Shown: positions 30,531 to 53,242 of the stretch, piece after piece
Numbering within the stretch: position 1 is the stretch's first letter
Layout of the letters: each line of letters starts with the position of its first letter
IMG/VR virus record: IMGVR_UViG_3300020048_003360
Coordinates: 32,001 to 96,000 of that record
DNA length: 64,000 nucleotides
Source: a virus
Lineage: Duplodnaviria; Caudoviricetes
Direction: 5' to 3' (one strand)
Notes under the pieces: model-generated
Told to the model about the DNA's origin: nothing
Database searches by the model: none
The model's input: only the letters and a program-made list of their open reading frames with translations
Translations under genes and position numbers: made by a program

Positions 30531-30566
30531 TTTACTTCCTTTATAAAGATTAATTTAAAGTAATTC

Positions 30567-30601
30567 CATATAAGTAATATATTGCCAAAATTATTTTGAA
30601 T
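30567..30601 (-). promoter_or_regulatory. Early promoter
   Basis: 35-bp motif copy upstream of the DHH gene. Confidence 0.8.
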
Positions 30602-30652
30602 ACGACATATAGAGACACTAGCACCATAGTGCTAGTGTCTCTATAGTCTTAA

Positions 30653-33619: not shown

Positions 33620-35170
33620 TTATAGTGGCGTGCCGATATTCACACTGGTGTACGAGAGTGCTTTATTTTCCATTAGAGTCCGTTTTTGCTCGTGGTATTG
33701 AAGGTGCTTCGGTATATCGGTGCACACGAAATAGAGAAAGCGTGGTGTACTACCATCCTTTAATGGACGCAGTCTACCTAGAGACTGTAGATTTGCCTGA
33801 ATAGAGGATACCGCAATCGTTAAAATCACAGTACTGAGTCCTGCAATATCCACTGCAGTACCAGCTGATCCCAATGTAGAAACAGATATATCGGACGTCA
33901 TCAGACTATCAAAATCGTCCTCGGCAGTATATTTGTTTATACTCAGATTAAAATACTTTCCTCCAGAATGTGAAGAGAGTTTATCTCTTAAGTACTTTAC
34001 TACTAATTCACACATCTCAATTGAAATACAGAATATTAAGCATTTCTGATTTGGTTTATAGTACTGTAGATAAGATCCTTTAAAAGTTTCCCATATCAAA
34101 TTGAAGTAATTACTAGTTACTACTTTATCACGTAGTATTGATTGCTCAAACATATGGTGACTATAAGTAGAACTTACTCTATCTAAATGCTTTATTTTAA
34201 ATGGATCTTTAAATCTATAAAAAATAGCTGTTGATGATACATATCTCCTATAAGCCTCACCAGCATACTGTAGATGTACTGGATATACTACTCCATACAT
34301 TTTAGATATAAAAGGATCATCAGACTTTAAAGTAGCGGATAGTGAAATACTACGATAGACATTAGTGTTTAATAGGATTTTAAATGCAGCATGAAACTCC
34401 TGATGAGCCTCATCAATAAGTAGAATACCCACACCTAATAACTTACAAAAGTCTTCAGGTATGCATGCGTATCCTATTGCTGTAGTTTCATATTGAAACT
34501 TCTCATATAGTTTAATCCAATTTGATAGAGTCTTCATACTGACTAAAATTATCTTAGCAGTTAATTCTCCATTTTCAGCTGCTGATAATAAAGTCAATAA
34601 CTGACTAGATCCACGTATTACCAAAACATCATCTGGATCTATATCGTATTTTTCATTAATCTCAATTTCCCATTTTTCTAAATACATGGGTTTTACTACA
34701 ATTAATGTTCTATGTCTGATTGTGGACATTGCCTTTAAAGCGCAAATCCCCTTACCCATACCTGTCTGTAGGTTTAAAAACTTAGCAACAGGTGGACCTA
34801 CAGAAGTAAGATATTCCACTATTGGTATCTGATAGTCCCTAAGAACCCATTCGGGTTTCATTTTCAATTCTACCTGAACTGGCATTGGAAATGGAATTGA
34901 ATCATGACCAACTAAGTCATCTACTAATCCAAACCCTTTAATAAAACAAATGAATTCGGATAATTGGTTAATATGAAAACGATATTCACTACGATCCATA
35001 GTAGATGTCGCAAATACTCTTACGGGCATTTTACTATAGTTCCCACGATCTTTTACCCAATTATAATGAATAAGAGTACTCGCAAACTTATTTATAGCTT
35101 CTCTAGCCCTAGGAGTAATTTTTGTTATTTTAAAAAAGTGAGATGCTGTAGTAATCAATAGTTCTGCCAT
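33620..35170 (-). CDS. Superfamily-2 helicase (phiKZ gp75-like)
   Basis: Walker A LQTGMGKG, DEAH, SAT motif III, QSLGRLR motif VI. Confidence 0.9.
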   Translation of the reverse strand: MAELLITTASHFFKITKITPRAREAINKFASTLIHYNWVKDRGNYSKMPVRVFATSTMDRSEYRFHINQLSEFICFIKGFGLVDDLVGHDSIPFPMPVQVELKMKPEWVLRDYQIPIVEYLTSVGPPVAKFLNLQTGMGKGICALKAMSTIRHRTLIVVKPMYLEKWEIEINEKYDIDPDDVLVIRGSSQLLTLLSAAENGELTAKIILVSMKTLSNWIKLYEKFQYETTAIGYACIPEDFCKLLGVGILLIDEAHQEFHAAFKILLNTNVYRSISLSATLKSDDPFISKMYGVVYPVHLQYAGEAYRRYVSSTAIFYRFKDPFKIKHLDRVSSTYSHHMFEQSILRDKVVTSNYFNLIWETFKGSYLQYYKPNQKCLIFCISIEMCELVVKYLRDKLSSHSGGKYFNLSINKYTAEDDFDSLMTSDISVSTLGSAGTAVDIAGLSTVILTIAVSSIQANLQSLGRLRPLKDGSTPRFLYFVCTDIPKHLQYHEQKRTLMENKALSYTSVNIGTPL

Positions 35171-35252
35171 TATGTTTCCTTAAATATCAAATTACAGACC
35201 CTTAGAGGGGTCCTAAAGAGCCTGTAAGATTCTACCTACACCTTTACTACGG

Positions 35253-35325
35253 GTGATATACTAACAATTTATCGAGTGGATGGTCTGGTCTGTTAGTAAT
35301 TAAGTAAGAGTTTGGACTAGTGATA
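35253..35325 (-). repeat. Orphan copy of the beta' 3' end (copy B)
   Basis: 68/73 nt identical to 36279-36351; translates ITSPNSYLITNRPDHPLDKLLVYHP-stop. Confidence 0.9.
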
Positions 35326-35332
35326 CATCTAT

Positions 35333-36136
35333 TTAGTCTACCCAAACATAATCGTCATACTGTTCCTCAGGATTAAAAATTCTACTCAGTGCTATCTCTT
35401 TAGATAGTCCGGACTCAATAGAATACTCATTCACCGAATTATAAATAGTGTTTTTTATTATACACTGGCGTTCATACATGTCTTTTTTATAGTAATACAT
35501 AGGAAACTTTGGATCACGTAATCTTCTCCGTAATGTAGGTGATGGAATTTTTGTAGCACTAGTAGAAGCTAATAGCGACTCATATTCGACACCATCTATT
35601 ATAATCCTCACTTGCCTATCTAACCTACTCTGAATGAGTTTTGCCAGTGCTTCAGGATTATTAGCTAAGTATTTCTTTATACCGGCACTAACTCTTAATC
35701 CGGCAGTAGGATTATTCTTATAATAGTTTTTTATTGTCATACTACGAGCAAGAGATTTGGTAGAATTACTTAATGTTTTATTAGCTTTTTCTGCTGGATA
35801 TAGATTGTAGACATATGGTTCTCCAAAATACCTATTTAGTAATACGGTTTCAGCATCAAAAGCTCGTCCTTTATTAATAGTCAATGCAAAATAGAAAATC
35901 ACATGTGGATCTTTTTTATAATCTTCTTGCAGTAATCTATTTGTGTGACTACCGACTCTTAAAAACCATTTGTGTTTTTCAAATCTTTTTTTAAGATCAT
36001 TTGAATGACCAATATAGACTTTATTACTACTATGTCGGATTAGATATACTCCACTTTTTTTATCTAAATCCGACATACTTAAAAACATACCGACTGGACT
36101 AAAACTAAATTCTAAAAATATATCTATATCATGCAT
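35333..36136 (-). mobile_element. Free-standing GIY-YIG homing endonuclease #1
   Basis: GVY-x9-YIG, conserved Arg/His, Glu (DAET) and Asn (VYN); C-terminal HTH-like repeats. Confidence 0.85.
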
Positions 36137-36272
36137 ATACTACCTCATTAAATTGAATATTAGCGATCGTCGTAGGCCATGTAGACGCAGGCCACTATAT
36201 ATCATTCATAATAATGAGGCAATATATTTTATTTATTATTAGAAAATTACTTCATAATAGTAAAATATAACC

Positions 36273-38243
36273 TCATGAGTGATATACTAACAGCCTATCC
36301 AATGGATGGTCTGGTCTGTTAGTAATTAAGTAAGAGTTTGGACTAGTGATAACACGGCGGTGGGATTCAAATGCCATAGCGGCGGACAAGGATCGATTTA
36401 CCATAGTTACTTTCATTACTCCTAATTCGTTTTTAGTAAATGGTTTAGGTAAACCATAATTGTTTTCACTATCATTAATGACCATACTGGCGTAAAACAC
36501 TACATCCAATACAGCTAAATTAACATTTAGTTTATCATTAACAAGATCAAACAACTCTACTAAAGCACTATTAGCGGTCGTTAGTTTATTACGTTTCTGT
36601 AACTTCCCTACTGATGATTCTAACATTTTCGCAATGTCTGCCGAATGATCTCCCATTGAGAAATGTTTCAGTGGTAACGTAAGAATCTCTTTAGAAAAAT
36701 TCCAGTCCTTCATGTCGATTACATAATTTCCCCGTTCATTTACTACCCATCCTTTCACTTTAATATATTCTAATAAATCAGTAGTCATGCTAGCTAGTCG
36801 TTGATTTAAACTAACTACAAAACTCTCAATATGTCCATTCACCATAATACCTATTTCAGATAATTCTGAAATTCTAGTAATATTTAAATCGTTAACGTTA
36901 GCTATTTCCATAACGTCAGTAATATTACTAGCTTCATCTGCAGCTACTATTAAAAAGACTTGTTTTTGTTTCAGAGTTTCTGTTAGGAGATAAGATGATT
37001 TATCTGTCGATACTTTTAAAAACTTTGCAGCTTTATCACTTAACGTAATACCAACTACTACTGAACTCCAGTCTAAATGCTTTACTGATAAAACATTTTG
37101 ACTAGATTTTTGAGCCAGTGATGTACAGCAAATTTGACCAAGATTTGTCCTATCTGGTATTGAATAGGATAATTCACCAAAACAAGTACTACAGACACCA
37201 TAAGGATCGGGATGCTGACAATGTATGGCCATACGTAATTTTATTGTATGTCCAATTAAATGGGTGTCAGTTTTCTTAATTATCTTAAGTACCCCATCTG
37301 TATCTAAATAGTATTTACCAATTAATTGTGATAAATCTCCTTTACGCTTTAGTGTTCCGTTTTCATAAAGTGAATCACGCACATGCCATGTTAAGTATTC
37401 TTTACTACCACAATCTCCCATATGTAGGTTTTGAACTACTTGAGACATTAACTGTAGTCGTCTAGAAAAATATTCAGCTTGTTGAAGAGGGGTCTTGCTG
37501 AACATTAAGCTCTTAGCAGCTGATCGGGATTCTATAAAGGAACTATAGAAGGTACGCAGTCCAGATACATATCCAGTAGTGATTGGAATCGGAAATAATA
37601 CGCTATCTGTATCTGTAATAAAACCTCTAGCAGAAACACATTGTAGAGTCTGATCCATACTAACTAAATTACCACGAATTGCAATAGCAATTGGATTATT
37701 GGCTAGCTCACTATCATTAAGTAAACTATTCCTAACAATACTATATGTTTTATCTATTGAACTTTGTGTTGGCTCAATAGTATCATTAGCCTCTTTTATT
37801 TTTGGATAGTTCATTACATTAATGAAATCCGTTATATCGAGCGATGTAGTATGTCCCTCACATACTACGGTTAATTTATTATAGATTTCATTAGTAATTT
37901 CATATACACGTCTAGCTAACGAATCTCTAAATTCAAGTTCATTACTATACTCAGATACGTATGTATCATAAACTGCCCACATACATACTCCTAAAAGCGA
38001 TAGGTGTGTATTACTACCCAATCTACCGTTTCCAATTATAGTAGAAACATGATGTTTTGATAATAATGGAGTTCTTGGATATGTCCTATGAAAATCCCAT
38101 GCAAATGATGAGTATTGTGTTTCTCTTGCATTTGTTTCTATCTCAATACCATCATCAAATAGTAAAGTAAACGGACCTGTAAGCGTGTCAAATAGTGTTT
38201 CTGTACTAAAACACAATAATGATCTAGCTAAAATTGTACGCAT
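36273..38243 (-). CDS. rpoC: Non-virion RNAP beta' C-terminal subunit (phiKZ gp74-like)
   Basis: SRRLQL, DCGS, HCQHPDPYGVCSTCFG, QNVLSVKH; 656 aa. Confidence 0.9.
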   Translation of the reverse strand: MRTILARSLLCFSTETLFDTLTGPFTLLFDDGIEIETNARETQYSSFAWDFHRTYPRTPLLSKHHVSTIIGNGRLGSNTHLSLLGVCMWAVYDTYVSEYSNELEFRDSLARRVYEITNEIYNKLTVVCEGHTTSLDITDFINVMNYPKIKEANDTIEPTQSSIDKTYSIVRNSLLNDSELANNPIAIAIRGNLVSMDQTLQCVSARGFITDTDSVLFPIPITTGYVSGLRTFYSSFIESRSAAKSLMFSKTPLQQAEYFSRRLQLMSQVVQNLHMGDCGSKEYLTWHVRDSLYENGTLKRKGDLSQLIGKYYLDTDGVLKIIKKTDTHLIGHTIKLRMAIHCQHPDPYGVCSTCFGELSYSIPDRTNLGQICCTSLAQKSSQNVLSVKHLDWSSVVVGITLSDKAAKFLKVSTDKSSYLLTETLKQKQVFLIVAADEASNITDVMEIANVNDLNITRISELSEIGIMVNGHIESFVVSLNQRLASMTTDLLEYIKVKGWVVNERGNYVIDMKDWNFSKEILTLPLKHFSMGDHSADIAKMLESSVGKLQKRNKLTTANSALVELFDLVNDKLNVNLAVLDVVFYASMVINDSENNYGLPKPFTKNELGVMKVTMVNRSLSAAMAFESHRRVITSPNSYLITNRPDHPLDRLLVYHS

Positions 38244-38267
38244 TGCCTTCTCCAGTTGAGATAACTA

Positions 38268-38302
38268 CATATAGGTAATATATTGCTATAAAAATATTAA
38301 GT
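38268..38302 (-). promoter_or_regulatory. Early promoter
   Basis: 35-bp motif copy upstream of beta'-C. Confidence 0.75.
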
Positions 38303-38348
38303 ACAGTAATGAAGAGATGTTATTTCTCTTCATTACTAATACCCAGTA

Positions 38349-40502
38349 TTACCAACTAGGAATATAGTTTTTGTAAATAAAGCTCCAGCCACTAGTACAT
38401 GCCATGTGCTTTACCAATACCAATGGTTTACTATGACCTATTGGATTTATATTACGATCTACATTTCTATCTATGTTAGTAGGAATATTAGCATTCAATA
38501 TTGACTCCAATACCATTTTGTGAGTAATTAATGAATTATTGCGATCTAAAATATCAGCAGTTATATCAGAACCACAATAACTAGCATAAATTCTAGTTTC
38601 AGATTCACCTAACGCCCTGATGGCTTGATTCCTACTGGGTTGTGAAAACTTATCACTATTTGTTACTTGTGATAAGACTCCAAAATGTTGTAACTTACCA
38701 GACGATACAGCTGTCCAATCATCTGCTGTTTTTTCCAACAAGATCATATAGACACTACCGATTCTAGTAGACTCTGTAGTAGTTACCCTTACTCCGGTAG
38801 CTCCCACATAACTAACTGGACCATATGTGGGTCTAAAATGTCTTTCTATTTCTTCTACTACCTCTTTTGGTTCTGGGGCGTTGCTGGGTGGCATATACAG
38901 ATAAATACCATTACGGACTACCTCAGATAGGTGTCTACTGCGTTTATCCTTATACTCCTTTTTAGTACGATTATCTACATACTCTCCATCTGTAAGTATC
39001 ACATACATTTTTGGAGATAGGATTTTATAATAAGCCATCAGATAATCCCATGCCCTATCTAATAACTCACTACCCGTATTTTCTAATCCCAATAACTTTC
39101 TACTAACATCATCCTCGTTTTTATCAATGTGTAGTATTTTACAGATTACTTTTACAACATCCCTAGACGCTGAGTTAAAATACTGCTCATAGAGTCTACC
39201 GATATTCATTCGACCAACAGTTGATAAAGCATCCATTACTATATCTGCTCTATTACCATCGGTATCTACTGGCATTTCATGTGGTTCTGCTATTTTACAA
39301 ATAACGCCTTTCCCCCCATGAAAATCTGATATTTTAAAACCTATAGTGGGAGTAGTTTCGTACTCTATTACAAACTCCACCCTATAGTCATCCAGTGGTG
39401 TATTATGGTAAAGTTTAATGATTTGTTGTGGATCGGTATCCATAACTGCCATTGCTTCCACCAGCATTCTATGTAACTCTGGCGTTAATCTAAGATTATC
39501 ACCACGTTGTTTCTTTAACCTGTGATATTCATCAATTAACTCCTTATAGAAACGATATCTAGCTTCATTATACTTATCAGCCTGATCATCCATGGTTGGA
39601 GTATCGGCTAATTTACTAGCGGTATTTTTAGAATCATGATGTATTTTAATGTCCACCACTACACCACCAGCACCACCTGCGTATGTTAATTTATCAAAAA
39701 TAAAATCAGGCTCCATTAAATCCGATATACTTTGTTCCACAACAGCTAATTCTTTATTATAATTTCGTAAACACATTAGAATACCATCACTACGTATTCT
39801 ATCTCCAATATCTGGAAATGGTTTATAATTATCTGCATCGCCGTACAGATTTAATGGAAATCGTTTACTACCCCACTCCACACTCCTGTTTTCATATGTC
39901 TTAAAACTAAATTTCTTTAAGACGTCACTACTGATCATTACGCCATCTTCAGATACAGATGGATGTGACATATATGCTACATTACACTCTATACCGTACT
40001 TATAACCACCATTACTGGTTATCGATGGTGAATTCATTAAGATAGTGCCAGCAGCCATAAAGGCACCTACACGTACTTCAGCTAACGATGGAGTTGGTTT
40101 ATACTCAAAACCAAAATACTGGTGATAGGAGCAGTATTTTGGTATACTCAACATACCTATTTCTTTAGTGTTAATATCCTCATATAGCACTACTGTTTGT
40201 GGGTTAAACTTAATTGTCTCCCTACCGACCCTATATGGGTAACGTTCAATTATTTTTATTATTTCAACTCCATTATTACCATTTGGATCACCTGGTATTT
40301 TTATAGAAAATGTGTATTTACCATACTCCCTTTCCATTCCAGTTTGAATAAAACGTTCAGTAGCCCCGCTCACCACTAAACTCTGACTAATATGTGATGA
40401 TCCCATTTGCTGACGAGGTGAGCTATCGTGCGCTGCAAATGGATTTAAACTTACAACACCTAATAATTCTCTATGGAGTTCATTAGGGTTTTTCATACTC
40501 AT
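38349..40502 (-). CDS. rpoB: Non-virion RNAP beta subunit C-half (phiKZ gp71-73-like, uninterrupted)
   Basis: RQQMGSSH, SEDG, KISDFHGGKGV, GRMNIG, GESE motifs; 717 aa. Confidence 0.9.
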   Translation of the reverse strand: MSMKNPNELHRELLGVVSLNPFAAHDSSPRQQMGSSHISQSLVVSGATERFIQTGMEREYGKYTFSIKIPGDPNGNNGVEIIKIIERYPYRVGRETIKFNPQTVVLYEDINTKEIGMLSIPKYCSYHQYFGFEYKPTPSLAEVRVGAFMAAGTILMNSPSITSNGGYKYGIECNVAYMSHPSVSEDGVMISSDVLKKFSFKTYENRSVEWGSKRFPLNLYGDADNYKPFPDIGDRIRSDGILMCLRNYNKELAVVEQSISDLMEPDFIFDKLTYAGGAGGVVVDIKIHHDSKNTASKLADTPTMDDQADKYNEARYRFYKELIDEYHRLKKQRGDNLRLTPELHRMLVEAMAVMDTDPQQIIKLYHNTPLDDYRVEFVIEYETTPTIGFKISDFHGGKGVICKIAEPHEMPVDTDGNRADIVMDALSTVGRMNIGRLYEQYFNSASRDVVKVICKILHIDKNEDDVSRKLLGLENTGSELLDRAWDYLMAYYKILSPKMYVILTDGEYVDNRTKKEYKDKRSRHLSEVVRNGIYLYMPPSNAPEPKEVVEEIERHFRPTYGPVSYVGATGVRVTTTESTRIGSVYMILLEKTADDWTAVSSGKLQHFGVLSQVTNSDKFSQPSRNQAIRALGESETRIYASYCGSDITADILDRNNSLITHKMVLESILNANIPTNIDRNVDRNINPIGHSKPLVLVKHMACTSGWSFIYKNYIPSW

Positions 40503-40547
40503 ACGTTTACTCCTTATGAAATTAATTAAATAGTACTAATCAGTACC

Positions 40548-40582
40548 CATATAGATAATATATTGCCATAATTTCTTTGAAT
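40548..40582 (-). promoter_or_regulatory. Early promoter
   Basis: 35-bp motif; 33 bp identical to the copy at 49089. Confidence 0.8.
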
Positions 40583-40633
40583 AAAAAAATATAGTAAAGA
40601 TAGACTACTATCTTTACTATATCGTATTAATTT

Positions 40634-40735
40634 TTATATATCAGTAGAGGATAGTGAAAGTTTATTAGCGTCGCCTAAAACTACCAAGCCTTTTGCGATT
40701 GCACTACATACATCTCTTGGATTAATTGTGTTCAT
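40634..40735 (-). CDS. 33-aa mini-paralog of the MYDEICKSIALG family (not in the ORF track)
   Basis: MNTINPRDVCSAIAKGLVVLGDANKLSLSSTDI; same AAGGATTTAAAA RBS as its neighbours. Confidence 0.55.
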   Translation of the reverse strand: MNTINPRDVCSAIAKGLVVLGDANKLSLSSTDI

Positions 40736-40748
40736 TTTTTAAATCCTT

Positions 40749-41162
40749 TTAATTAGTAAATTTTTCTAGAATCATGTTGTTGATCGCAACTGATAACAAT
40801 GCCAAACGATACTTATTTTTAGCGTTTTTTAATTTGTTTTCAGCTTCCGCTAGTTGGCTATATAGCTCTGTATAAAAACCAGCAATATGGGACATAACTA
40901 CAGCCCCCAATTCCTCCTGATTAATCGTACTTAGCTTTTTAGCAGACTTAAGAGCCTTTTTAGCTTTCTTAACTTTCTTTTTTGCCATAATAAGATTAGA
41001 CTCAATTAAGAATGGCATATTTCGTATTGTCGTCATGTTACTATAGTGCCTGATATATTTATTCAATTTCTTATTACCAGTAGCAAACATAATGCTAGTG
41101 AACGCCTTATTATCGGCAGACACAATGCCTAAGGCAATTGACTTGCAGATTTCATCATACAT
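40749..41162 (-). CDS. Hypothetical helical protein, tandem paralog 2
   Basis: 137 aa; first 14 aa identical to 41192..41605. Confidence 0.75.
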   Translation of the reverse strand: MYDEICKSIALGIVSADNKAFTSIMFATGNKKLNKYIRHYSNMTTIRNMPFLIESNLIMAKKKVKKAKKALKSAKKLSTINQEELGAVVMSHIAGFYTELYSQLAEAENKLKNAKNKYRLALLSVAINNMILEKFTN

Positions 41163-41191
41163 TTTAAATCCTTTATGAAACTAATTAATCA

Positions 41192-41605
41192 TTAAATTTT
41201 TAAACCAGATGATAATTCATAAACCTGCATAGTTAGTTCCGCTAATTCATGTTTATCTCTTGCCTTTTTTAAACAGTTTTCAGCTGCAGTTAGTTGACCA
41301 TGTCTAGCTAAATAAGCACCTATAAGTTCAGTGGTGTTTTTAGTTTTTAACTCCTCATTGGTGAGTATGGGTTTTCTTTTAATAGATTCTAAATATTCCC
41401 TAGCACTGTTAAGTTCCTTTTTTGTTATATATGCGCTATCGACAACTAAAGCTAACAGATTTTGTTTTTTAGCCAAATCAGTATAGTGGTTAATATATTT
41501 AATTACTAATGTCTCATCGATAGTAGTAGTATCTATATGTGAGTCTTCATTACCAGTACCAATTACAATGCCTAACGCAATTGACTTGCAGATTTCATCA
41601 TACAT
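41192..41605 (-). CDS. Hypothetical helical protein, tandem paralog 1
   Basis: 137 aa; MYDEICKSIALGIV. Confidence 0.75.
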   Translation of the reverse strand: MYDEICKSIALGIVIGTGNEDSHIDTTTIDETLVIKYINHYTDLAKKQNLLALVVDSAYITKKELNSAREYLESIKRKPILTNEELKTKNTTELIGAYLARHGQLTAAENCLKKARDKHELAELTMQVYELSSGLKI

Positions 41606-41654
41606 TTTAAATCCTTTAACTATATTTTATGATCAAAAAACCTAAGGTATATTC

Positions 41655-41996
41655 ATGAATATAAATAGATTAATGAAAAACTCAGGTCCCTCTATCTATT
41701 ATGATGATTCTTTTAGAGTGGTCTTAGAAACATTTGTACCGTCACTTATAGTCAGTCAAGACACAACACAGATTAGTGTGAGTGAACAAGCTGCCTATAA
41801 GTACGAATCGGACTTTTTTGGTTTACTGAGTGAGTTTAATATTCCAGTACATCTACATTGGTTAGTGATGCGGATGAATAACTTAACATCACCATTCGAT
41901 AGTACTTTATTGTATAATCTATTGTTAGTGCCAGATGAAAATACAATAGACCATATAAGACAATCGTATATGTCCGGAAATAGAATTAACGGATAA
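41655..41996 (+). CDS. Conserved phiKZ-like small protein on the opposite strand
   Basis: 113 aa; AAGG RBS; HWLVMRMNNLTSP resembles baseplate LysM/gp53-type proteins (weak). Confidence 0.55.
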   Translation: MNINRLMKNSGPSIYYDDSFRVVLETFVPSLIVSQDTTQISVSEQAAYKYESDFFGLLSEFNIPVHLHWLVMRMNNLTSPFDSTLLYNLLLVPDENTIDHIRQSYMSGNRING

Positions 41997-42057
41997 TTCA
42001 CTACATGAGGGTATGAATCCTCATGTAGTGAATATGCCGTATTTTTATTATTTTATA

Positions 42058-43296: not shown

Positions 43297-43308
43297 TTTA
43301 TCTACTCT

Positions 43309-44802: not shown

Positions 44803-44817
44803 AATACTCTCCAGTAA

Positions 44818-46350
44818 TTACTTAAAAACTCGCTTTGCTATTTCTATTACTAAGTTGGCTAGTAATATTTTTGCATTGTGAGGCGTACTGTATCTACTAC
44901 TACCGCCATCTACTTTCTCTAACATATGTTTAGGTAAAGTGAGTATCCACTCATGCTCACTAAACATAGCGACAACTGACTCTATTGCCTCGACAGCAGG
45001 ATTAATTGTCTTTACTATTCTTTGCTTACCTACAGGTTTTCTAGAATATGGATAGAGAAAATCCAATTGTTCCATTTGCTCTTTAGATATTCTTGCACGT
45101 GAATCAGAACCACTTACCGATAACTCATCTATAGTTTCTTGATTAATAGCTGTTAGTAATGCAGCTAGTTCAAAAAATTCTCTATGCCACAATATTGCTT
45201 GAGCAACAGCTACTGCCGTTAGCACTTGTTTCTTATTTACATGTAACAATCCTTTTGGTGGAACCACTCTCTTTAATACCCACTGGGTAATTATAAGTTG
45301 TGGTTTCCAGAGTTGTTTATCCTCTAAAACCACTACTGCGTCTAAACACGTCTGTACTAACTTTAAGTCAATAGTGGGGCAAATTTCAAGGGCTAGTGTA
45401 AATGGATCTTTTAAATAAAACCCAATAATAGCTATATCGCCAGCAGCTATCTCTTGTTTGGTTTTATAACCTTCTAGCTTAGACAGATTGTTTTCACCCT
45501 CTGCAGCTTGTCCTACTATGGTCTTATCTTTAATTAGACCAATAAAGGATTTATCATGTCCCTTTACTCTTTGGTCCATGTAATTGTAAATGAAGGTCAC
45601 CAATGATGTTGTTGGATCAATTCCACGTACATCACCAATTGACAGTCTTCTTACAACTACTAAACCTAATACCCATATTGGAAAATCTTCAGTACTTATT
45701 CCTCCAAAAACAGCAGATGTTTTACTCTTATCTGCAGGTAGTGAATGCTCTACATATATCTTTAACCTCTCCATTGGTTCGGATCTGATTAAATTTGTAT
45801 GGGCCAATAAATGAAAAGCATAATATTCTTTAAATACGGTATTTTTTCTTCCAGTTCTAGCTATGAACTCACCCCAAATTGGTATCATTATCCTGAAAGA
45901 TACCGATAGAGCCACTAACCATTTGTAATCATCTTTTAGATACGTGCGTTCTCTAGTGCCTGGTGTTTCATAAGACACAGTAAATGCATCCCGTAACCCT
46001 ATTGGTAGATGGACGCCACTATGAAACCATAGCCAGTGATTTATATCCTCAATAGGCTGCAAACTAAACAACTCACCTACGAGTATATATAGTTTACCAG
46101 TAAGATCATTTACGTCCCATACGGTATCAAATAATGCCCTAATGCGTTTATATGTGTCAAATATAGTATCTTGAACAGATGGTTGTGAATATGCCCAGAA
46201 GCCATTTATCTCCTGAAAAATATCCATATCATTCTTAACTGACATCTTTTCAAAAAGCGCGATATTCCATTCAATAGTTTCCCCGTGATGCGCCATACTT
46301 GCCATGACTGGTGTACCATCATACTCGATTCGTTTTACAATAAGTTCCAT
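44818..46350 (-). CDS. nvRNAP promoter-specificity subunit (phiKZ gp68-like)
   Basis: 510 aa; size and synteny; own early promoter. Confidence 0.75.
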   Translation of the reverse strand: MELIVKRIEYDGTPVMASMAHHGETIEWNIALFEKMSVKNDMDIFQEINGFWAYSQPSVQDTIFDTYKRIRALFDTVWDVNDLTGKLYILVGELFSLQPIEDINHWLWFHSGVHLPIGLRDAFTVSYETPGTRERTYLKDDYKWLVALSVSFRIMIPIWGEFIARTGRKNTVFKEYYAFHLLAHTNLIRSEPMERLKIYVEHSLPADKSKTSAVFGGISTEDFPIWVLGLVVVRRLSIGDVRGIDPTTSLVTFIYNYMDQRVKGHDKSFIGLIKDKTIVGQAAEGENNLSKLEGYKTKQEIAAGDIAIIGFYLKDPFTLALEICPTIDLKLVQTCLDAVVVLEDKQLWKPQLIITQWVLKRVVPPKGLLHVNKKQVLTAVAVAQAILWHREFFELAALLTAINQETIDELSVSGSDSRARISKEQMEQLDFLYPYSRKPVGKQRIVKTINPAVEAIESVVAMFSEHEWILTLPKHMLEKVDGGSSRYSTPHNAKILLANLVIEIAKRVFK

Positions 46351-46382
46351 ACGATCTCCTAGTTAATACAGATGACATACTC

Positions 46383-46417
46383 TATATAGATAATATATTG
46401 CCATAAAGATTTAGAAT
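46383..46417 (-). promoter_or_regulatory. Early promoter
   Basis: 35-bp motif copy. Confidence 0.8.
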
Positions 46418-46498
46418 CTTGTATCGGTATGGGGAATTAAAACACTCCCTACCATTATTCCTTTCGAGAATAGTGGTAGAAAGTGTTTATGTGATCAA

Positions 46499-47143
46499 TT
46501 AAAACGGGATGTCTTCTGATGATGAGTTTTTACTTCCATAGTCATTCCTGACCGGCATGTCTTTCTTTGGAGGCTCTACCCAGTTATTAACGAGTAGTGT
46601 TTCCATAACTCCATAAAGAACTTTAACATACGCCTTAGCGTAATATTGAGATACTGCATCTTTACCAGCAGGACTACCATCGCCATTAAAGAAATGATGG
46701 AAGTCACTTTCACCAAAAGTAAATTTAATGATTGGTCTATTTTTAGATACTAAAGATACCCAAATTAAACCATCTTTATCCTTACCAAAATAAAGTGTAC
46801 TAATCAATACTGGTGTTTCTGATTTAACGCCTCGTGGAAAGATAAAGTTGTAGTTTTCAAGATATTCTTTTTTCTCACCTTGGTGATCAATTAGATTACC
46901 CAAACGATCTAAAAATGCCGTAAAGGTAGGCATATCTAAGTTAGCTACAATCTTACCATAATTATTCGATTCACCAGTATCATTTGGATCATTGGTCCAA
47001 ACAACTAAGCGTGGGTTATTGGCAACTAATTGCCAAGTAAAACTACTCCATTTTGTATTATCACCTGGGCAACGTGTAGATAGATGTAGTTTGCGATTGT
47101 CTAACGCATTTTTAACACGCTCGGGCGGGCGGAAGTCACTCAT
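46499..47143 (-). CDS. Conserved protein with SSB-like acidic tail (...SEDIPF); possible ssDNA-binding protein
   Basis: 214 aa; C-terminus resembles bacterial SSB DDDIPF. Confidence 0.5.
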   Translation of the reverse strand: MSDFRPPERVKNALDNRKLHLSTRCPGDNTKWSSFTWQLVANNPRLVVWTNDPNDTGESNNYGKIVANLDMPTFTAFLDRLGNLIDHQGEKKEYLENYNFIFPRGVKSETPVLISTLYFGKDKDGLIWVSLVSKNRPIIKFTFGESDFHHFFNGDGSPAGKDAVSQYYAKAYVKVLYGVMETLLVNNWVEPPKKDMPVRNDYGSKNSSSEDIPF

Positions 47144-47220
47144 GATTTTTTCCTAATTAAATTTAAAATTAATAAAGTTTCATTGTATCAAACTATATGG
47201 CTCTGCAATATTTTATTACT

Positions 47221-48060
47221 TTAAAGAATATCTAACATGATTTGTCGAGCATATGGATTCAATAAAGTTTCTAAACCATATCTCACTTTATCTCTAGTAG
47301 TCACAGAACTCCAGTTGTATTTCTTAGCTACCTCCAATATAGACATACGTAGTTTACGATCATGGGGTCTGAATAGAGTCTCATCACCAAAAACAGTCAA
47401 GAAACATTTCATAAAAGGAATTTGATTTAACTCACTACCATTATGTAATTTGGTATACCATTGACTTTTTCCTTTCACAAAACCCGTATGACTTTCTAAC
47501 AATGATAGTTTACTAAACTCATGTGCTGATAATAAATCAATAGCAAAATGCGTTAGTATTAAAGCACTGTTTGAGCCATTAGGGTTCTTTAGAAATAACT
47601 CAAATCCTTTTATATCTAGATCTGGATTCTTAAGAAGAAGTTTCATTACCTGTGCCTGTAGGGCGCTAAACTCCTTTTGCTTTTCAGTGTTATCCATACG
47701 CGCGACACTGCGTTTAAACTCCCGTTCAATACCATTATAGTTAGAGTAGTAAAACACTACTTTAACATTACCATTTCTAGATGTATTCTCTTCCACAAAT
47801 GTTCTAATAAACGACATCTCCTCAGCTAATGTAGCTGCTAACTCGATAATACTGACTTTACCCGCATTGTTTCTCTCTAATGAGCCCAACATATTTCGGA
47901 AAAGAGTACGGACGTTTACAAGCAACGAACTGTATTTTAAGATAGGCACTTCTGAGGATGGATGATCTGGATGGACACCATAGGCTCCCTCAATCGCAAG
48001 GCTTGTAGCGATAGACAACGGCAGCTGTCCAACTGCACGTTGTGATAAAAGATCTATCAT
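47221..48060 (-). CDS. Conserved phiKZ-like protein (possible 5'-nuclease/PIN-like fold)
   Basis: 279 aa; position next to SbcD; fold guess is weak. Confidence 0.45.
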   Translation of the reverse strand: MIDLLSQRAVGQLPLSIATSLAIEGAYGVHPDHPSSEVPILKYSSLLVNVRTLFRNMLGSLERNNAGKVSIIELAATLAEEMSFIRTFVEENTSRNGNVKVVFYYSNYNGIEREFKRSVARMDNTEKQKEFSALQAQVMKLLLKNPDLDIKGFELFLKNPNGSNSALILTHFAIDLLSAHEFSKLSLLESHTGFVKGKSQWYTKLHNGSELNQIPFMKCFLTVFGDETLFRPHDRKLRMSILEVAKKYNWSSVTTRDKVRYGLETLLNPYARQIMLDIL

Positions 48061-48101
48061 TTAAATTCCTTTAAATATTAAATTACAGACTCTCCAAGGG
48101 A

Positions 48102-49052
48102 TCACATATGCTTTCTAGCTAAATATGCTTTCCTAGCTGAAGACATATTAGCTCTAGCTTCAGCAGACCTAGGCTTACTCATTTTTGCGATAGCTTCAGG
48201 AGTATGTTTTCTACCAATAGTTGCTAAAGACATTTTTGCGATAGCTTCTGGAGAATGTTTTCTACCCATATGCACAGCACGCATACGTGCTTTAGCTTCT
48301 GGAGAGTTGTGATAAGCCTTCAGTTTAGCGATAGTTTCAGGAGAAAGTTTTTTACCAGTATTTGCTAACGATAATTTAGCTCTATGCTCAGGAGAAATTA
48401 TTTTACCCGTATTTACCTCACTCATACGTGCTCTATGTTCAGGAGTATTGCGATAAGCTTTCATTTTTGCGATAGTTTCGGGAGAACGTTTTTTACCAGT
48501 ATTTGCTAGTGATAGTTTTTCACGTGTTTCAGCAGACTTAGGTTTACCAGTGCGTGACTCGCTCATACGTGCCTTAGCTTCTGGAGTATTTTGATAAGCC
48601 TTCATACGCGCTTTAGCTTCTGGAGTATGTTTTCTACCAAGACTTGCTAAAGACATTTTTGCGATAGTTTCAGGAGTGCGTTTAATTCCCTGTTGCGAGT
48701 ATGCACTAGGAGCTAGATTATAAATAAAAGACTCACCGAAATACTCATCTAGTAAACTTTGTTCAACACTATGCGCTGTTTCTCTAGTGTCTACAGGCCT
48801 AACATAGTAGATTACAGTTGGGTCATTATTATAGTCCAATTGTAACGATTTGCTACGATGCATATTCCTAGAGAGGCAGTGCCTGTGGTCTTTAATTCTT
48901 TGTCTTAAATCATTAGTACTACCAATATAAAATTTACCAGTAGACACATGTTTGATCAGATAGCATCCAGGTCCATTTAGTAAGTGTCTATATTCTTTAT
49001 TACTCAATAGTGCAATTGGTACAAATCCAGTAATTATGTCATTATCTATCAT
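48102..49052 (-). mobile_element. Free-standing GIY-YIG homing endonuclease #2 with ~12 NUMOD3-type repeats
   Basis: GCY-x10-YIG, R/H, Glu (SVEQ), Asn (IYN); repeats such as RKHTPEAKARMS. Confidence 0.9.
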
Positions 49053-49088
49053 GGTCGTTATCCTTTATGAAATAATTTAAAGTAGTTC

Positions 49089-49123
49089 CATATAGATAAT
49101 ATATTGCCATAATTTCTTTGATT
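49089..49123 (-). promoter_or_regulatory. Early promoter for GIY-YIG #2
   Basis: 35-bp motif abutting the sbcD stop codon. Confidence 0.8.
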
Positions 49124-50241
49124 CAAGGCGATATGTCGTTTAGAATCTTTTCTGCTATCAAAACAACATTTGAATCTACATCAGAATGAAATACCCTATT
49201 CATTAATAGTCCTTTAAGATTCTCAGGAGTTATAGTTATAGGAATATAGTCTACATCACTACCTTCTTCTGTAATTTTATCTTCAACTACCTTATCCTTA
49301 ACTAATCTACTCCATATTAGTAACGGATAGCGTGAGACCAATACATTCATATTTGTAATTACTGGATTATCACCACTGCCAATAACACGTATATAAGATC
49401 CATTGGGTGGTGTGGTATTTAATATTGTATTATCTATTTTTTGTAATGACTCATCTACAGTTAAGTCTGTACAGTCTATAGATTTAAATATCTTAGCTTT
49501 CTTATTTTCAACTAATCTTGCAGTATAACCATCATTAGTTATTGTAGCGCGTACATGACCTTTTGGTTCTTCTTCACCGTGTGCAAGACGATCAAAAGAA
49601 CCTTGAGCTATGATTCTTTTGTATGTAGAAAAGGTATGGATATGTCCAATAAATATTAGTTCCCTTACTATAGCCAAATACTCATCTGGATCGTGTTTAT
49701 GCGATTTTACAATTTCTGGTAGCTGAAATGTAAATGCACCATGCATTATGGCATAATCCACATGAGTGAGTCCTTTTGCTTTTAATAATGCCTTTACGTC
49801 AGCTAAAGTACGCTCTGTAGTGGATTGCCACTCGTCTGGTATATACAGTACATGGATATCATATTTCTGTATATACTCAATAGATAGTTCCTTAACATAT
49901 ACTAAGTCTATTGGTGAGTTTATTATTTTAGCTATATTAACAAATTGTTCTGATTGTTTCCAATCATGGGATGGAGTGCCTTCTAGTACTCTTAGTAAGA
50001 TATCGTGTTTAGCACATAAATTTAATAAGTGCGTTATCCAAAAACCTATTTCTTTAACATCATCATTGGGTAGCGTTAATAATCTATCAAATATATCACC
50101 AGCTAAAAAAATAATATCTAACTCAGCAGTTTCGGCATTATCTGGAAATGCTAATTTTAAATTGGCAATAATATCTGTAGTTTTATTTTTAGAATTTCCT
50201 AGATGAAGGTCAGATATAACTGCCAAGTTAAGTTTACTCAT
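49123..50241 (-). CDS. sbcD: SbcD/Mre11-like metallophosphoesterase nuclease (phiKZ gp65-like)
   Basis: SDLHLG, AGDIFD, GTPSHD, MHG and GHIH motifs. Confidence 0.9.
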   Translation of the reverse strand: MSKLNLAVISDLHLGNSKNKTTDIIANLKLAFPDNAETAELDIIFLAGDIFDRLLTLPNDDVKEIGFWITHLLNLCAKHDILLRVLEGTPSHDWKQSEQFVNIAKIINSPIDLVYVKELSIEYIQKYDIHVLYIPDEWQSTTERTLADVKALLKAKGLTHVDYAIMHGAFTFQLPEIVKSHKHDPDEYLAIVRELIFIGHIHTFSTYKRIIAQGSFDRLAHGEEEPKGHVRATITNDGYTARLVENKKAKIFKSIDCTDLTVDESLQKIDNTILNTTPPNGSYIRVIGSGDNPVITNMNVLVSRYPLLIWSRLVKDKVVEDKITEEGSDVDYIPITITPENLKGLLMNRVFHSDVDSNVVLIAEKILNDISP

Positions 50242-50578
50242 GATTTATTGCCTTATGTTTATTGCGTTTTCTGTTTCTTTTTTCTTCAGCTTTTCTATAT
50301 ATTTCATCTGAATCGCCCTTATTTGATTTAAGAACTTTTTCTATTTGTTTATGTGCAGCTGTGCCAAAAACCATATTACGCATATGTTTTAATACAGGTC
50401 CATCAAAATGTCCATTAGGATCAACATTGTATTTTTGTCTACTATCTTCCATATTTACTACATCCTCTGTTTGTGTATCTACATCATCATCTAGATCCAC
50501 GTGTGTTCGTGTATCGTCCGTAGATTCAGAAAGTAAACCTTCCATTGCGCTGTAGAGTCTATTTTGAGCAGCTGACAC
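50234..50578 (-). CDS. Hypothetical protein
   Basis: 114 aa; GGAGGA RBS with GTG start; overlaps the sbcD start. Confidence 0.6.
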   Translation of the reverse strand: MSAAQNRLYSAMEGLLSESTDDTRTHVDLDDDVDTQTEDVVNMEDSRQKYNVDPNGHFDGPVLKHMRNMVFGTAAHKQIEKVLKSNKGDSDEIYRKAEEKRNRKRNKHKAINHE

Positions 50579-50592
50579 TTTATCATCCTCCT

Positions 50593-51138
50593 TTAAAAAC
50601 TTTCAAAATCATCTGGATTAGTTTTAGGTAGATTTACTTCTTCCTTCACTACATCCGAAACTATTTCTGGTCTACCATATCTTTTAAATACCATATTCCA
50701 AAAATCTAAATTCTTTGTGATATTTGCTGGCACTTTTAATATCGACGCACATTTATCTAATGCACCAGTTAAATATGCAGCACCTTGATTAGGATGAAAC
50801 CTATAATACTGTTGTGCTGTAGCTACTATGTGCGATACATTTAAACTCTTTTCTGGCGCACTATTAATAGTACTTCTATCGAATATTGGTGGCACTCTAA
50901 AAATAACTACACCATTTCTATCTATTACATCTACTGAACTATATGGACCACCAGCAAAATTCACCCACGTCTCTAATGTGGCACCATACTTATTTTCTTC
51001 ACCAGCAAATACTGGCATAAATACACCAGCAAAAATATGTTCTTGTAATTTAGGAATTGTTTCACTATCTAACGTTTCTAGATTACTATTAATTCTAGTT
51101 AATAATAGAGACGTTTCTTGTTCTTTTTGACTAGACAT
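50593..51138 (-). CDS. Conserved phiKZ-like hypothetical protein
   Basis: 181 aa in the operon. Confidence 0.65.
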   Translation of the reverse strand: MSSQKEQETSLLLTRINSNLETLDSETIPKLQEHIFAGVFMPVFAGEENKYGATLETWVNFAGGPYSSVDVIDRNGVVIFRVPPIFDRSTINSAPEKSLNVSHIVATAQQYYRFHPNQGAAYLTGALDKCASILKVPANITKNLDFWNMVFKRYGRPEIVSDVVKEEVNLPKTNPDDFESF

Positions 51139-51143
51139 TATTT

Positions 51144-51551
51144 TTATCCATTAACAAGTTTAGATACAGCCGTAACTTTTGCATTAGTGATTCTAAGTAA
51201 ATTACCTATTGAATGTGTTACGCCACCTTCAGTAACTAAACAGTGTATCGTTACTTCAACACTACTATTATTATCATCGTATCTATCGTCATTACTTGTC
51301 GTCACAATAGCTAAATCGTAATATCTACTTAGATATGTCTCTAATGTATTTTGTAAATCCTCAGTAAAAGAATTAATGTTTCCATTATGTTTCTGAAGTA
51401 AATACTGCATACTGCTAACTTCGCCATTATATAAATAAGATTGACTATGCATTGTTTCGTAAAAATAAGATAACAATGAATCTGCCTTACTAGATGGATC
51501 TGTAATCCAACCCTGTGGACTTAATGATGGTACTGGTATATTAACGGTCAT
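51144..51551 (-). CDS. Conserved phiKZ-like hypothetical protein
   Basis: 135 aa; AAGGAG RBS. Confidence 0.65.
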   Translation of the reverse strand: MTVNIPVPSLSPQGWITDPSSKADSLLSYFYETMHSQSYLYNGEVSSMQYLLQKHNGNINSFTEDLQNTLETYLSRYYDLAIVTTSNDDRYDDNNSSVEVTIHCLVTEGGVTHSIGNLLRITNAKVTAVSKLVNG

Positions 51552-51697
51552 TATATATCTCCTTAGCTACATATGTATTCAGTGTTAAATAAATTTTTAT
51601 AATAAGATAACTACATACTAGTAATATATATTTATAACAGTTTAAAATAAAAAAAATAATGACGAATTCCCTATTAAAGGATTCGTCATTAATTAGT

Positions 51698-52330
51698 TCA
51701 TAAACTATCACCCCAAATACTGGTTGGGTCTTCGCCACCATACTTTATTAAATTGGCAACTACTTCCCAAGTTTTCAATATACTAGTTTGCTCATCATGA
51801 GATAATTCCCTATCACCCTCATGTAGAGTATCCAAGTAAATGCTAACTTTATCATTACCTTCTTCATCGGCAACAAAAATACCATTCATAACTCTACGGT
51901 AATCATAGTGGTTCTCACCTACCCCACCAGGTTCCATATCCACATACGTATCACTATAGCCATCACATCTTTGTTGATGATAAATTTCTCGAACATCAGG
52001 TTGTGCCATAATAAAACGCTGCATTATTGGCTGTGCATTCTGTAACTTATCTAGCTCAGAAATAAAGTGAATATCAGTTCTACTGAATAGATTATTCATT
52101 TTATTTAATGCAGCTCTAGCAAGTTGCATAGCCTGAGAACCCGTAAAGCTATTCAGCATTTCTCTAGAGTTTGCAAAGAATTGCTGTCCAGCTTCAGTTA
52201 GAGTATTGCTAAGATTAGCTACACTACTAACACTGTTTTCGAGATAATTTATGGTACCAGGATGTCGTTCAGCCCCATACACAAGAGCTCTAAATGCCAT
52301 ATCATCACCATAACCTACCTGTATAGCCAT
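51698..52330 (-). CDS. Conserved phiKZ-like hypothetical protein
   Basis: 210 aa; GAGGA RBS supplied by the shared cassette module. Confidence 0.7.
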   Translation of the reverse strand: MAIQVGYGDDMAFRALVYGAERHPGTINYLENSVSSVANLSNTLTEAGQQFFANSREMLNSFTGSQAMQLARAALNKMNNLFSRTDIHFISELDKLQNAQPIMQRFIMAQPDVREIYHQQRCDGYSDTYVDMEPGGVGENHYDYRRVMNGIFVADEEGNDKVSIYLDTLHEGDRELSHDEQTSILKTWEVVANLIKYGGEDPTSIWGDSL

Positions 52331-52430
52331 TATTTTTCCTCAAATATTAAATTACAGACCCTCCAAGGGGTCTTAAAGGGTCTGTAATCTCGACTACTCA
52401 CACTTCTATTAACGAAACGCTAATAACGCA

Positions 52431-53138
52431 TTATGGTGCTTCTAAGCCATCATTTGCTTTTTTATTAGCAAAATATGTTTTCCTAGATAAAGACATTTTA
52501 GCTCTAGCTTCGGCAGAAATTGTTTTACCACGGTGTATTGAAGATAGTTTAGCCCTACCTTCGGCAGACATTGTTTTACCATTAGCTACTAAGGCAGTCT
52601 GTATTAAAGACATTTTAGCTTTTGATTTATCAGTGTGTTTTCTACCGGTAGATTTTAAAGACATCTTAACACGTGCTTCGTCGGTGTGTTTTCGACCGGT
52701 GTGCAGCTTACTCATCCGCTCCTTAGACTCAGGTGTATTTACAAAGATCTTTATATTGGCCTTTGTAACGTCATCAAGTTTAACTCCTTTAGCTGATTTA
52801 GCACTAGGTGATTTATTATAAATAAAAGACTCACCGAAATACTTATCTAGTAAGTCCTGCTTAATACTAAACGCCTCTTCTCTAGTATTGGTAGGTTTAC
52901 AATAGCAAATTATCCGTGGATCATCATTATAGTGATGCTGTAGTAATCGACATTTATGTATATTAGTCCTAAGAAAGAAACCATTAGTCGTAATTCTTTT
53001 TCTTAGAATATTACCAATGCCAATATAATAACCGCCACTACCCAGATGTTTAACCAAATAACAACCATAACCACTTAAGTCGTCATCACTAACCTCGTTA
53101 AATAAAGTGAATCCAGTAGTTACCTCATTATCAATCAT
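52431..53138 (-). mobile_element. Free-standing GIY-YIG endonuclease #3, NUMOD3 repeats, probably inactive
   Basis: GCY-x10-YIG; paralog of #2 (MIDNEVTTGF vs MIDNDIITGF); catalytic Glu position is Lys. Confidence 0.8.
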
Positions 53139-53162
53139 ATCACCATCCTTTTAAAGTAGTTC

Positions 53163-53197
53163 CACATAGGTAATATATTGCTATAATTATTTAGAAT
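53163..53197 (-). promoter_or_regulatory. Early promoter for GIY-YIG #3
   Basis: 35-bp motif copy. Confidence 0.8.
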
Positions 53198-53242
53198 AGA
53201 GGATACAGACTCTATAACTGAGTCTATATCCTATCCACTCTC

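Follow-up and report, generated by a model that had tools for sequence, protein, structure and literature searches.

A hairpin and ribosome-binding-site module behind three GIY-YIG endonuclease genes of an uncultured jumbo phage

Illegitimate repair, a rare event, is thought to bring free-standing homing-endonuclease genes to new sites, and footprints of the source of the copy are seldom preserved. Here we describe three GIY-YIG genes, in a 64,000-nucleotide (nt) stretch of phage DNA, that share a short 3' module consisting of a hairpin and a ribosome-binding site (RBS) and ending at the start codon of the next gene. The stretch, hereafter the window, is bases 32001-96000 of an uncultured-phage record of 208,022 bp and 35% G+C. 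The phage is an uncultured, Chimalliviridae-like jumbo phage of the nucleus-forming type, and genes for chimallin, for subunits of the non-virion RNA polymerase (nvRNAP) and for a helicase surround the finding in the order seen in Chimalliviridae. Genes, module copies and loci are numbered 1 to 3 by position.

Several described systems resemble this arrangement in part. In the seg genes of T4-type phages, reviewed in PMC2988022, as in the genes described here, intergenic GIY-YIG genes with NUMOD3 repeats lie between conserved genes and are absent from the corresponding gaps of relatives, and a proposed route of ectopic spread is the illegitimate repair of breaks at microhomology; the review describes such repair of double-strand breaks together with transposition-like insertions of endonuclease genes. 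Unlike the seg genes, the three paralogues reported here share a 3' non-coding tail that gives the next gene its RBS and appears traceable to one resident junction, and their host is a nucleus-forming-type jumbo phage with RNA polymerases of its own. Promoter-early stem-loop (PeSL) cassettes are short repeated regulatory units that bound mobile gene modules in T4-type phages (PMC2839356, PMC4122927). The early promoters of the present genome, some 19 in number and mostly preceded by a hairpin, are reminiscent of them, and GIY-YIG 2 and 3 each start with one. The 3' module is not a PeSL: it lacks a promoter consensus, lies 3' of the gene, ends in an RBS and ATG, and has three copies tied to one gene family. 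A further difference from PeSL cassettes is that relatives have no repeat at loci 2 and 3 that could be used for homologous exchange.

Endonuclease reading frames that carry the end of a host gene or intergenic sequence have been described in fungal mitochondria (PMC3630166, which also cites elements carrying intergenic sequence). The mORFs of the Allomyces atp6 type resemble locus 1 in that the nuclease gene is flanked by two host-gene 3' ends, the upstream one in frame and the downstream one orphaned; they differ in that the setting here is a phage and not a mitochondrion, the duplication is only 73 nt at 93% identity, and the intergenic piece that was carried is a hairpin and RBS reused at other loci. 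Homing endonucleases also cluster at the RNA-polymerase genes of nucleus-forming phages, as in PhiPA3 gp210 (PMC11620839). The window has a comparable HNH-bearing group I intron in its nvRNAP beta'-N gene, whereas the genes reported here are free-standing GIY-YIG genes between genes and not intron-encoded HNH genes. A limited literature search, which is no proof of novelty, found no account of homing endonucleases that share, as a family, a portable tail of hairpin and RBS whose donor junction can be traced.

A module confined to three gene junctions

The three loci comprise the following genes and module copies.

33620-35170, minus strand: SF2 helicase gene, lying downstream at locus 1; the metagenomic relative L032 has the same start, ATGGCAGAA (MAELLITT)
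35166-35229, minus strand: module copy 1; 12-bp hairpin at 35192-35227, A/U-rich tract and AAGGA Shine-Dalgarno sequence at 35171-35191, helicase ATG at 35168-35170
35333-36136, minus strand: GIY-YIG 1, 267 amino acids; GIY-YIG domain (PF01541, 38.8 bits); no canonical early promoter upstream
47221-48060, minus strand: conserved chimallivirus gene phrog_3229, downstream gene of locus 2
48061-48101, minus strand: module copy 2; 3' half only, with right arm, A/U tract and AAAGGA Shine-Dalgarno sequence
48102-49052, minus strand: GIY-YIG 2, 316 amino acids; GIY-YIG domain (PF01541, 41.8 bits) and many NUMOD3 repeats
51698-52330, minus strand: conserved chimallivirus gene phrog_3254, downstream gene of locus 3
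52326-52390, minus strand: module copy 3; 19-bp hairpin at 52349-52390, A/U tract and GAGGA Shine-Dalgarno sequence at 52331-52348, ATG at 52328-52330
52431-53138, minus strand: GIY-YIG 3, 235 amino acids; NUMOD3 repeats intact; PF01541 match of 16.6 bits, below the cut-off

An initial annotation had placed two module copies on the minus strand at 35168-35212 and 52328-52372, with 39 of 45 positions identical, and a half copy at the stop codon of GIY-YIG 2. All three were recovered with the sequences as quoted, the half copy at 48067-48101 following the TGA at 48102-48104. The homology of copies 1 and 3 spans 62 nt at 85% identity (35166-35227 against 52326-52387), from the left arm of the hairpin to the ATGGC of the next gene. 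Relative to copy 3, copy 2 lacks about 78 nt that comprise the final codons of the nuclease gene, the spacer and the left hairpin arm; its right arm and A/U tract match those of copy 3 at 29 of 31 positions by our own count.

We found three matches to the module in the window and three in the full record, in agreement with the confinement first proposed. A 19-nt core allowed up to three mismatches had three matches in the window where 0.15 were expected, a number reached in none of 100 shuffles, and an 18-nt version allowed up to two mismatches found only the same three places in the full 208,022 bp. With copies 1 and 3 as the input to an nhmmer profile, copy 2 scores E=2e-5 and the next match E=0.62. 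The record also holds just three frames that match PF01541 (35333-36136, 48102-49052 and 52431-53138, all on the minus strand), and in every case, three out of three, the module separates the GIY-YIG gene from the start codon of the conserved gene that follows, as had been claimed. By our arithmetic, with about 165 same-strand junctions, three copies would fall on precisely these three by chance with a probability of the order of 1e-6. The module is thus not a common terminator or RBS of this genome, an explanation that would have spoken against its link to the endonucleases, because it has three copies only and all of them accompany GIY-YIG genes. It is the layout of hairpin, A/U tract and AAGGA that is common in the genome (for example upstream of the gene at 68127-69125), as are ATATTTAAGGA-like RBS contexts; the module sequence is not. 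No Rfam family matches the module, and matches to the core in IMG/VR (10) and in JGI metagenomes (10), all without hairpin context, were set aside as chance.

The long hairpin originally ascribed to copies 1 and 3 is found in full only in copy 3, where a perfect 19-bp stem has a predicted energy of -27.2 kcal/mol (z -7.3). Copy 1 has a shorter, 12-bp stem (-16.5 kcal/mol, z -2.5), and in copy 2, which has lost the left arm, no hairpin forms. Folded from the opposite strand, both hairpins lose about 7 kcal/mol of stability, as several of their pairs are G-U, and this greater stability of the sense strand points to an RNA structure in the sense transcript. The stem is followed by UUU(G/A)AUAUUU, then by an AAGGA or GAGGA Shine-Dalgarno sequence, and by the ATG a further 7-8 nt on. 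As a promoter the module is not recognisable, having neither the early consensus nor the TATTTTATG motif. That motif, in the form TATTTTATG(A), stands 25-35 nt upstream of several plus-strand genes (41623, 58681, 74047, 105282 and 138109) and is a candidate promoter of another temporal class.

The endonuclease genes and their empty sites in relatives

The PF01541 profile aligns to the I-TevI structures 1mk0 and 1ln0, and the invariant columns of the catalytic Tyr/Arg/His/Glu/Asn set are kept in GIY-YIG 1 and 2. In GIY-YIG 3 the equivalent of His31 has become Asn and that of a Glu, which we take to be Glu75 in I-TevI (residue numbers beyond 55 are assumed), has become Lys; both positions are invariant in 13 other aligned members of the family. 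GIY-YIG 3 still has an open frame and an early promoter, and to judge by these substitutions it is probably nuclease-dead, either a DNA-binding protein or an early stage of decay. NUMOD3 repeats score 85.4 bits in GIY-YIG 2 and 35.3 bits in GIY-YIG 3, and these two proteins are 51% identical in the catalytic domain and 49% over 228 aligned residues. GIY-YIG 1 shares only the catalytic domain with them, at about 40% identity, and its different C-terminal half has no Pfam match. Among 5.8 billion proteins the best external homologue of GIY-YIG 3 is about 30% identical.

In a tree of the catalytic domain GIY-YIG 2 and 3 are sisters (94/91), and all three belong to a clade (88/80) with Ralstonia phage FLC4-5C gp223 and Burkholderia phage SURPRISE13 gp220; the trio is monophyletic in 74% of bootstrap trees. 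The tree was built without P0125, P0127, P0129 and P0130, an earlier version having been distorted by wrong-frame translation and long branches. The features of a free-standing GIY-YIG homing endonuclease (the domain, the catalytic set and an intergenic position absent from relatives) are largely present in the trio, GIY-YIG 3 being deficient in its catalytic residues; a further such feature, an appended DNA-binding module, is present in GIY-YIG 2 and 3. We regard the three as putative free-standing homing-endonuclease genes of the GIY-YIG family, specific to this lineage and placed in intergenic sites of the chimallin/nvRNAP/helicase block. The proposal that two of the three follow nvRNAP beta' genes also held: GIY-YIG 1 lies after the phrog_3015 beta' gene, and GIY-YIG 3 after exon 2 of the intron-split phrog_2987 gene that adjoins the chimallin gene. 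The phrog_2987 gene, a phiKZ gp55-like beta'-N gene at 53243-56066 (minus strand), is divided into pieces of 420 and 78 amino acids by a group I intron (Rfam RF00028, 89 bits, 54570-54871) that carries an HNH gene at 53501-54496; its counterpart is also split in L030/L031 and L028 and is unsplit in L029 and FLC9.

The best cultured relative of this phage is Burkholderia phage FLC9, with 52% amino acid identity in the beta' subunit, and the closest relatives found are metagenome contigs at 57-68% amino acid identity. Megablast of the region against cultured phages gave no match, an IMG/VR search with the helicase, phrog_3229 and the GIY-YIG alignment as queries gave no relative, and phrog_3254 as query found relatives there at 37-42% identity only. 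The genes from chimallin to helicase keep the order found in FLC9 and three metagenomic relatives (L028, L029/L032 and L030/L031), which are also the four GIY-YIG-free genomes compared at loci 2 and 3. These four, together with L033 and L034, have no GIY-YIG gene at whichever of the three junctions each covers, and FLC9 is empty at loci 1, 2 and 3. At locus 3 the spacer between the upstream stop codon and the phrog_3254 ATG is 9 nt in L028 (a relative at 68% amino acid identity), and 8 nt in L030/L031; in L029 it measures 49 nt and consists of a bare early promoter. The SbcD-like gene and phrog_3229, which flank locus 2, are 1 nt apart in L032, and in L031 a gap of 138 nt is filled by an open reading frame of 45 amino acids and lacks the module. 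No hairpin was found at the empty loci 2 and 3 of the GIY-YIG-free relatives. Since the flanking genes are adjacent there without a hairpin, the promoter, nuclease gene, module and downstream RBS at loci 2 and 3 of the window are inserted DNA. The RBS region of phrog_3254 is unlike that of its orthologues (GGAGGGTGT in L028) and resembles the helicase leader; judged by such comparisons, the native RBS at loci 2 and 3 is apparently replaced by that of the module.

The 5' side of the inserts consists of the following features.

49053-49122, minus strand: early-promoter consensus and leader GGAACTACTTTAAAT of GIY-YIG 2, directly after the stop codon of the SbcD-like gene at 49123-50241
53139-53202, minus strand: early-promoter consensus and leader of GIY-YIG 3
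53203-53240, minus strand: 12-bp hairpin between the stop codon of beta'-N exon 2 and the promoter of GIY-YIG 3

The shared leader and promoter reported for GIY-YIG 2 and 3 are present, but they are less distinctive than was supposed. The early-promoter consensus (ATTCAAAATAATTATGGCAATATATTACCTATATG, about 35 nt, with the core GGCAATATATTACCTATATG) has about 19 copies in the record, every one of them on the minus strand (in the window, for example, at 38283, 40563, 46398, 58103 and 62795), and recurs in L029. A strong hairpin directly precedes most copies, and a stem-loop followed by an early promoter is how intergenic regions of this genome are usually built. The one distinctive element on the 5' side of GIY-YIG 2 and 3 is the short leader GGAAYTACTTTAAA, and even this heads an unrelated gene of the DHH/DHHA1 family at 29604-30530 (minus strand). 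As the 5' similarity is mostly a genome-wide consensus, it is weak evidence for a cassette boundary, and the resident DHH-family gene may have donated or received the 5' part of the cassette. The promoter and leader of that gene (30531-30610, minus strand) agree with those of GIY-YIG 2 up to and including the leader and the RBS region (GGAAYTACTTTAAATTA...TAAAGGA). GIY-YIG 1 has no canonical copy of the early promoter upstream in its own orientation.

These comparisons bear out part of the earlier proposal that a self-contained unit of promoter, endonuclease, hairpin and RBS had spread between loci. It suits loci 2 and 3, which are empty in relatives, but not locus 1, where the module looks native and GIY-YIG 1 lacks a canonical early promoter. 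Spread to new sites, as opposed to single-site homing, fits the emptiness of loci 2 and 3 in relatives, the place of the trio in a chimallivirus GIY-YIG clade and the sister relationship of GIY-YIG 2 and 3.

A duplicated beta' gene end at locus 1

Locus 1 contains two copies of the end of the nvRNAP beta' gene.

35253-35325, minus strand: orphan copy of the last 73 nt of the gene, reading ...HPLDKLLVYHP and stop, between the stop codon of GIY-YIG 1 and module copy 1
36279-36351, minus strand: in-gene copy of the 73-nt repeat, completing the beta' gene at 36273-38243 (...HPLDRLLVYHS and stop)

The two copies form a direct repeat with 93% identity in which the first 49 nt are perfect and the five differences cluster in three codons near the 3' end. 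The locus thus runs from the beta' gene with a replacement end through a spacer, GIY-YIG 1, the orphan native end and its stop codon, 19 nt, the hairpin and the RBS to the helicase gene. Loci 2 and 3 show no duplication of a gene end. In the GIY-YIG-free relatives L031, L032, L033 and L034 the beta' stop codon, a strong hairpin, the RBS and the helicase ATG follow one another in a matching arrangement; the junctions of L031 and L033 are identical, so that the four relatives represent three distinct phages at this locus. The stem sequences of these relatives are unrelated to the module and, across the three phages, to one another, and L032 has ATTTAAGGA...ATGGCNGAA in common with the window. 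The comparison of filled and empty sites that had been suggested as a check therefore gave different answers by locus: relatives lack the module at loci 2 and 3 but have an analogous, non-homologous hairpin and RBS at locus 1. By its layout the module of locus 1 looks resident, a beta' 3' hairpin joined to the helicase leader. The beta' C-termini of L033 (...LDRLLVYHD) and L034 (...LDSLLVHHN) are too distant to say which 73-nt copy is the closer.

FLC4-5C gp223, a member of the same clade as the trio, lies between the beta' and helicase genes and so at the same junction as GIY-YIG 1, which makes that junction a recurrent home of the clade. In FLC4-5C (L035, LC819009; 4938-5768) gp223 is annotated from 5100, and the GIY-YIG match, in frame with it, runs from 5001; the true start is probably further upstream than annotated. 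FLC6, FLC8 and other sister phages match about 60% of this stretch of FLC4-5C at 98-99% identity, in two pieces and with equal span, so that it is the middle that differs.

Four aquatic-metagenome runs (X1-X4) contain this phage. A single low-depth Logan contig from run X3 joins the two copies of the 73-nt repeat (35276/36303) and skips GIY-YIG 1, representing either a gene-less or popped-out allele or an assembly artefact; we did not count it as evidence because its depth is low and it passes the 49-nt perfect repeat in contigs built with k=31. Joints in run X1 at promoter repeats have sides of only 20-37 nt and were read as repeat crossings of the assembly graph, not as rearrangements. Elsewhere in the window, at 40749-41605 (minus strand), two tandem paralogous genes of 137 amino acids have weak TPR-like matches and begin with a shared 54-nt repeat (98%); contigs of runs X3 and X4 there include a forward jump and a backward jump of 443 nt each, which suggests variation in copy number within the population.

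Origin and role of the shared tail

The account that we favour, by a modest degree, is that the tail was captured at the beta'/helicase junction and carried by the nuclease gene to ectopic sites, with locus 1 invaded again later. The module would originally have been the hairpin native to the 3' end of the nvRNAP beta' gene, joined to the helicase leader. An ancestor of GIY-YIG 2 and 3 situated just upstream of the hairpin would have been copied to an ectopic site by illegitimate repair of a double-strand break, bringing with it some 60-80 nt of 3' flank, and the right-hand joint would have formed at microhomology between RBS and start-codon regions, the only sequence common to intergenic regions. 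Further copying would have produced the second ectopic locus. As the native genes at the new sites would have abutted, the imported tail would there supply the RBS of the downstream gene. GIY-YIG 1 would then have arrived at locus 1 with a replacement beta' end, pushing the native end and the module downstream. Two comparisons underlie this reading. The hairpins of relatives at the orthologous junction are unrelated, yet copies 1 and 3 are 85% identical at non-orthologous junctions, which indicates recent shared ancestry within the lineage; and since relatives have a hairpin and RBS only at locus 1, and copy 1 is contiguous with the displaced beta' end, an origin at locus 1 is the most economical. 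The position of FLC4-5C gp223, a clade member between beta' and helicase, also speaks for this account. The sense-strand hairpin probably ends or processes the nuclease transcript initiated at the early promoter, the RBS then serving the next gene.

The contrast between the module and the genes has more than one possible cause. Nucleotide identity in the GIY-YIG domains is 54-64%, far below that of the module, and four-fold degenerate sites are near saturation (24 of 42 identical between GIY-YIG 2 and 3, 2 of 10 between GIY-YIG 1 and 3). With synonymous sites in this state and the module almost unchanged, there has been strong constraint, exchange of sequence or a later arrival of GIY-YIG 1 at locus 1, and the fresh 73-nt duplication suggests the last of these.

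Several observations weigh against an origin by capture at the beta'/helicase junction, or against the role just given to the hairpin. Conservation of the module so far above that of synonymous sites needs purifying selection or gene conversion. GIY-YIG 1 is only about 40% identical to the other two proteins in the catalytic domain and differs from them in its C-terminal half, so the account needs turnover of the endonuclease at locus 1. Homology of copies 1 and 3 upstream of the hairpin, towards the beta' stop codon, which would have revealed a remnant of the beta' end at locus 3, lacks significance, an equal score being reached by 59 of 500 shuffles. The sites called empty are those of phages at 41-68% amino acid identity, and with no close relative (85% nucleotide identity or more) in the phage, IMG/VR or JGI collections we infer the state of the immediate ancestor. 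A scan for consensus intrinsic terminators lists the hairpin of neither copy 1 nor copy 3, the signals of the phage's own polymerases being outside the model of the tool; the terminator rule misses these hairpins because the tail UUUAAUAUUU is interrupted by an A. Finally, copy 2 retains the sequence of the 3' half without a hairpin, which a purely structural role leaves unexplained. That this half is conserved in sequence hints at a further function that depends on the sequence, for example binding of a protein or activity as a promoter of an unrecognised kind.

The same excess of module over synonymous conservation lends some weight to a different history, which we consider unlikely but the most serious competitor to capture of a resident tail. 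Here the hairpin and RBS would be an integral cis element, a selected insulator or adaptor that the cassette brought to all three loci; at locus 1 it would have replaced the native beta' hairpin, and the original nuclease there would later have been lost or replaced by GIY-YIG 1. The module does adjoin GIY-YIG genes only, it is clearly within the insert at loci 2 and 3, and the hairpins of relatives at the orthologous junction share no sequence with it. Yet at locus 1 it follows the orphan beta' end at the distance and in the layout of the native hairpins of relatives, and its arrival with a cassette needs a precise loss of promoter and gene that left a solo module, and then a second invasion.

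We judge it very improbable that the module, or its 3' half, pre-existed at each junction as a target site recognised by this endonuclease family. Insertion is in every case immediately upstream of the same sequence, GIY-YIG 2 and 3 do have DNA-binding repeats of the NUMOD3 type, and I-TevI binds a second, operator-like site (PMC2988022). The empty loci 2 and 3 of the four relatives, however, leave no room for the module in spacers of 1-49 nt, and it is absent from the one gap of 138 nt; no copy exists anywhere without a GIY-YIG gene; the C-terminal half of GIY-YIG 1 differs from those of GIY-YIG 2 and 3; and the orphan beta' end with its module would be an intact target in the phage's own genome. 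Still harder to sustain is concerted evolution, or chance, among ordinary terminator and RBS units homogenised by gene conversion. The frequency in this genome of the generic layout and of ATATTTAAGGA-like RBS contexts speaks for it, but identity of 85% over 62 nt, loop and stem included, exceeds a generic resemblance, the profile finds no intermediate copies, and conversion needs a prior homology that is not seen at loci 2 and 3 of relatives. Least plausible of all is a DNA-level recombination site at which the cassette moves by a hairpin-dependent, transposon-like reaction in place of break repair, since the long perfect palindrome at one end of the unit in copy 3 and the precise insertion at gene starts are offset by a single hairpin per unit with no matching 5' element, its better folding on the RNA sense strand through G-U pairs, the lack of a transposase, a copy 2 without a hairpin, and the 73-nt gene-end duplication at locus 1, which is a footprint of the repair type.

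It is conceivable, although we think it doubtful, that the tail is no passive passenger but a portable adaptor under selection, with which this endonuclease family can enter between essential genes that abut or are translationally coupled by closing the nuclease transcript and re-initiating translation of the next gene, and that it is kept near-invariant through selection or possibly through binding by the probably nuclease-dead GIY-YIG 3. Were this so, promoter, nuclease, hairpin and RBS would together form a phage expression cassette that is truly self-contained and transposable.

The carried tail appears to mark the donor locus of these endonuclease genes as the beta'/helicase junction, and insertion between tightly packed essential genes would be tolerable in that the insert brings an RBS for the next gene. 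Three stages in the life cycle of an endonuclease seem to be present in one window: a recent invasion with a replacement gene end (GIY-YIG 1), an ectopic copy, apparently intact, that has lost its hairpin by deletion (GIY-YIG 2) and a probably nuclease-dead copy (GIY-YIG 3). All three genes lie in the RNA-polymerase gene block, a known battleground between nucleus-forming phages.

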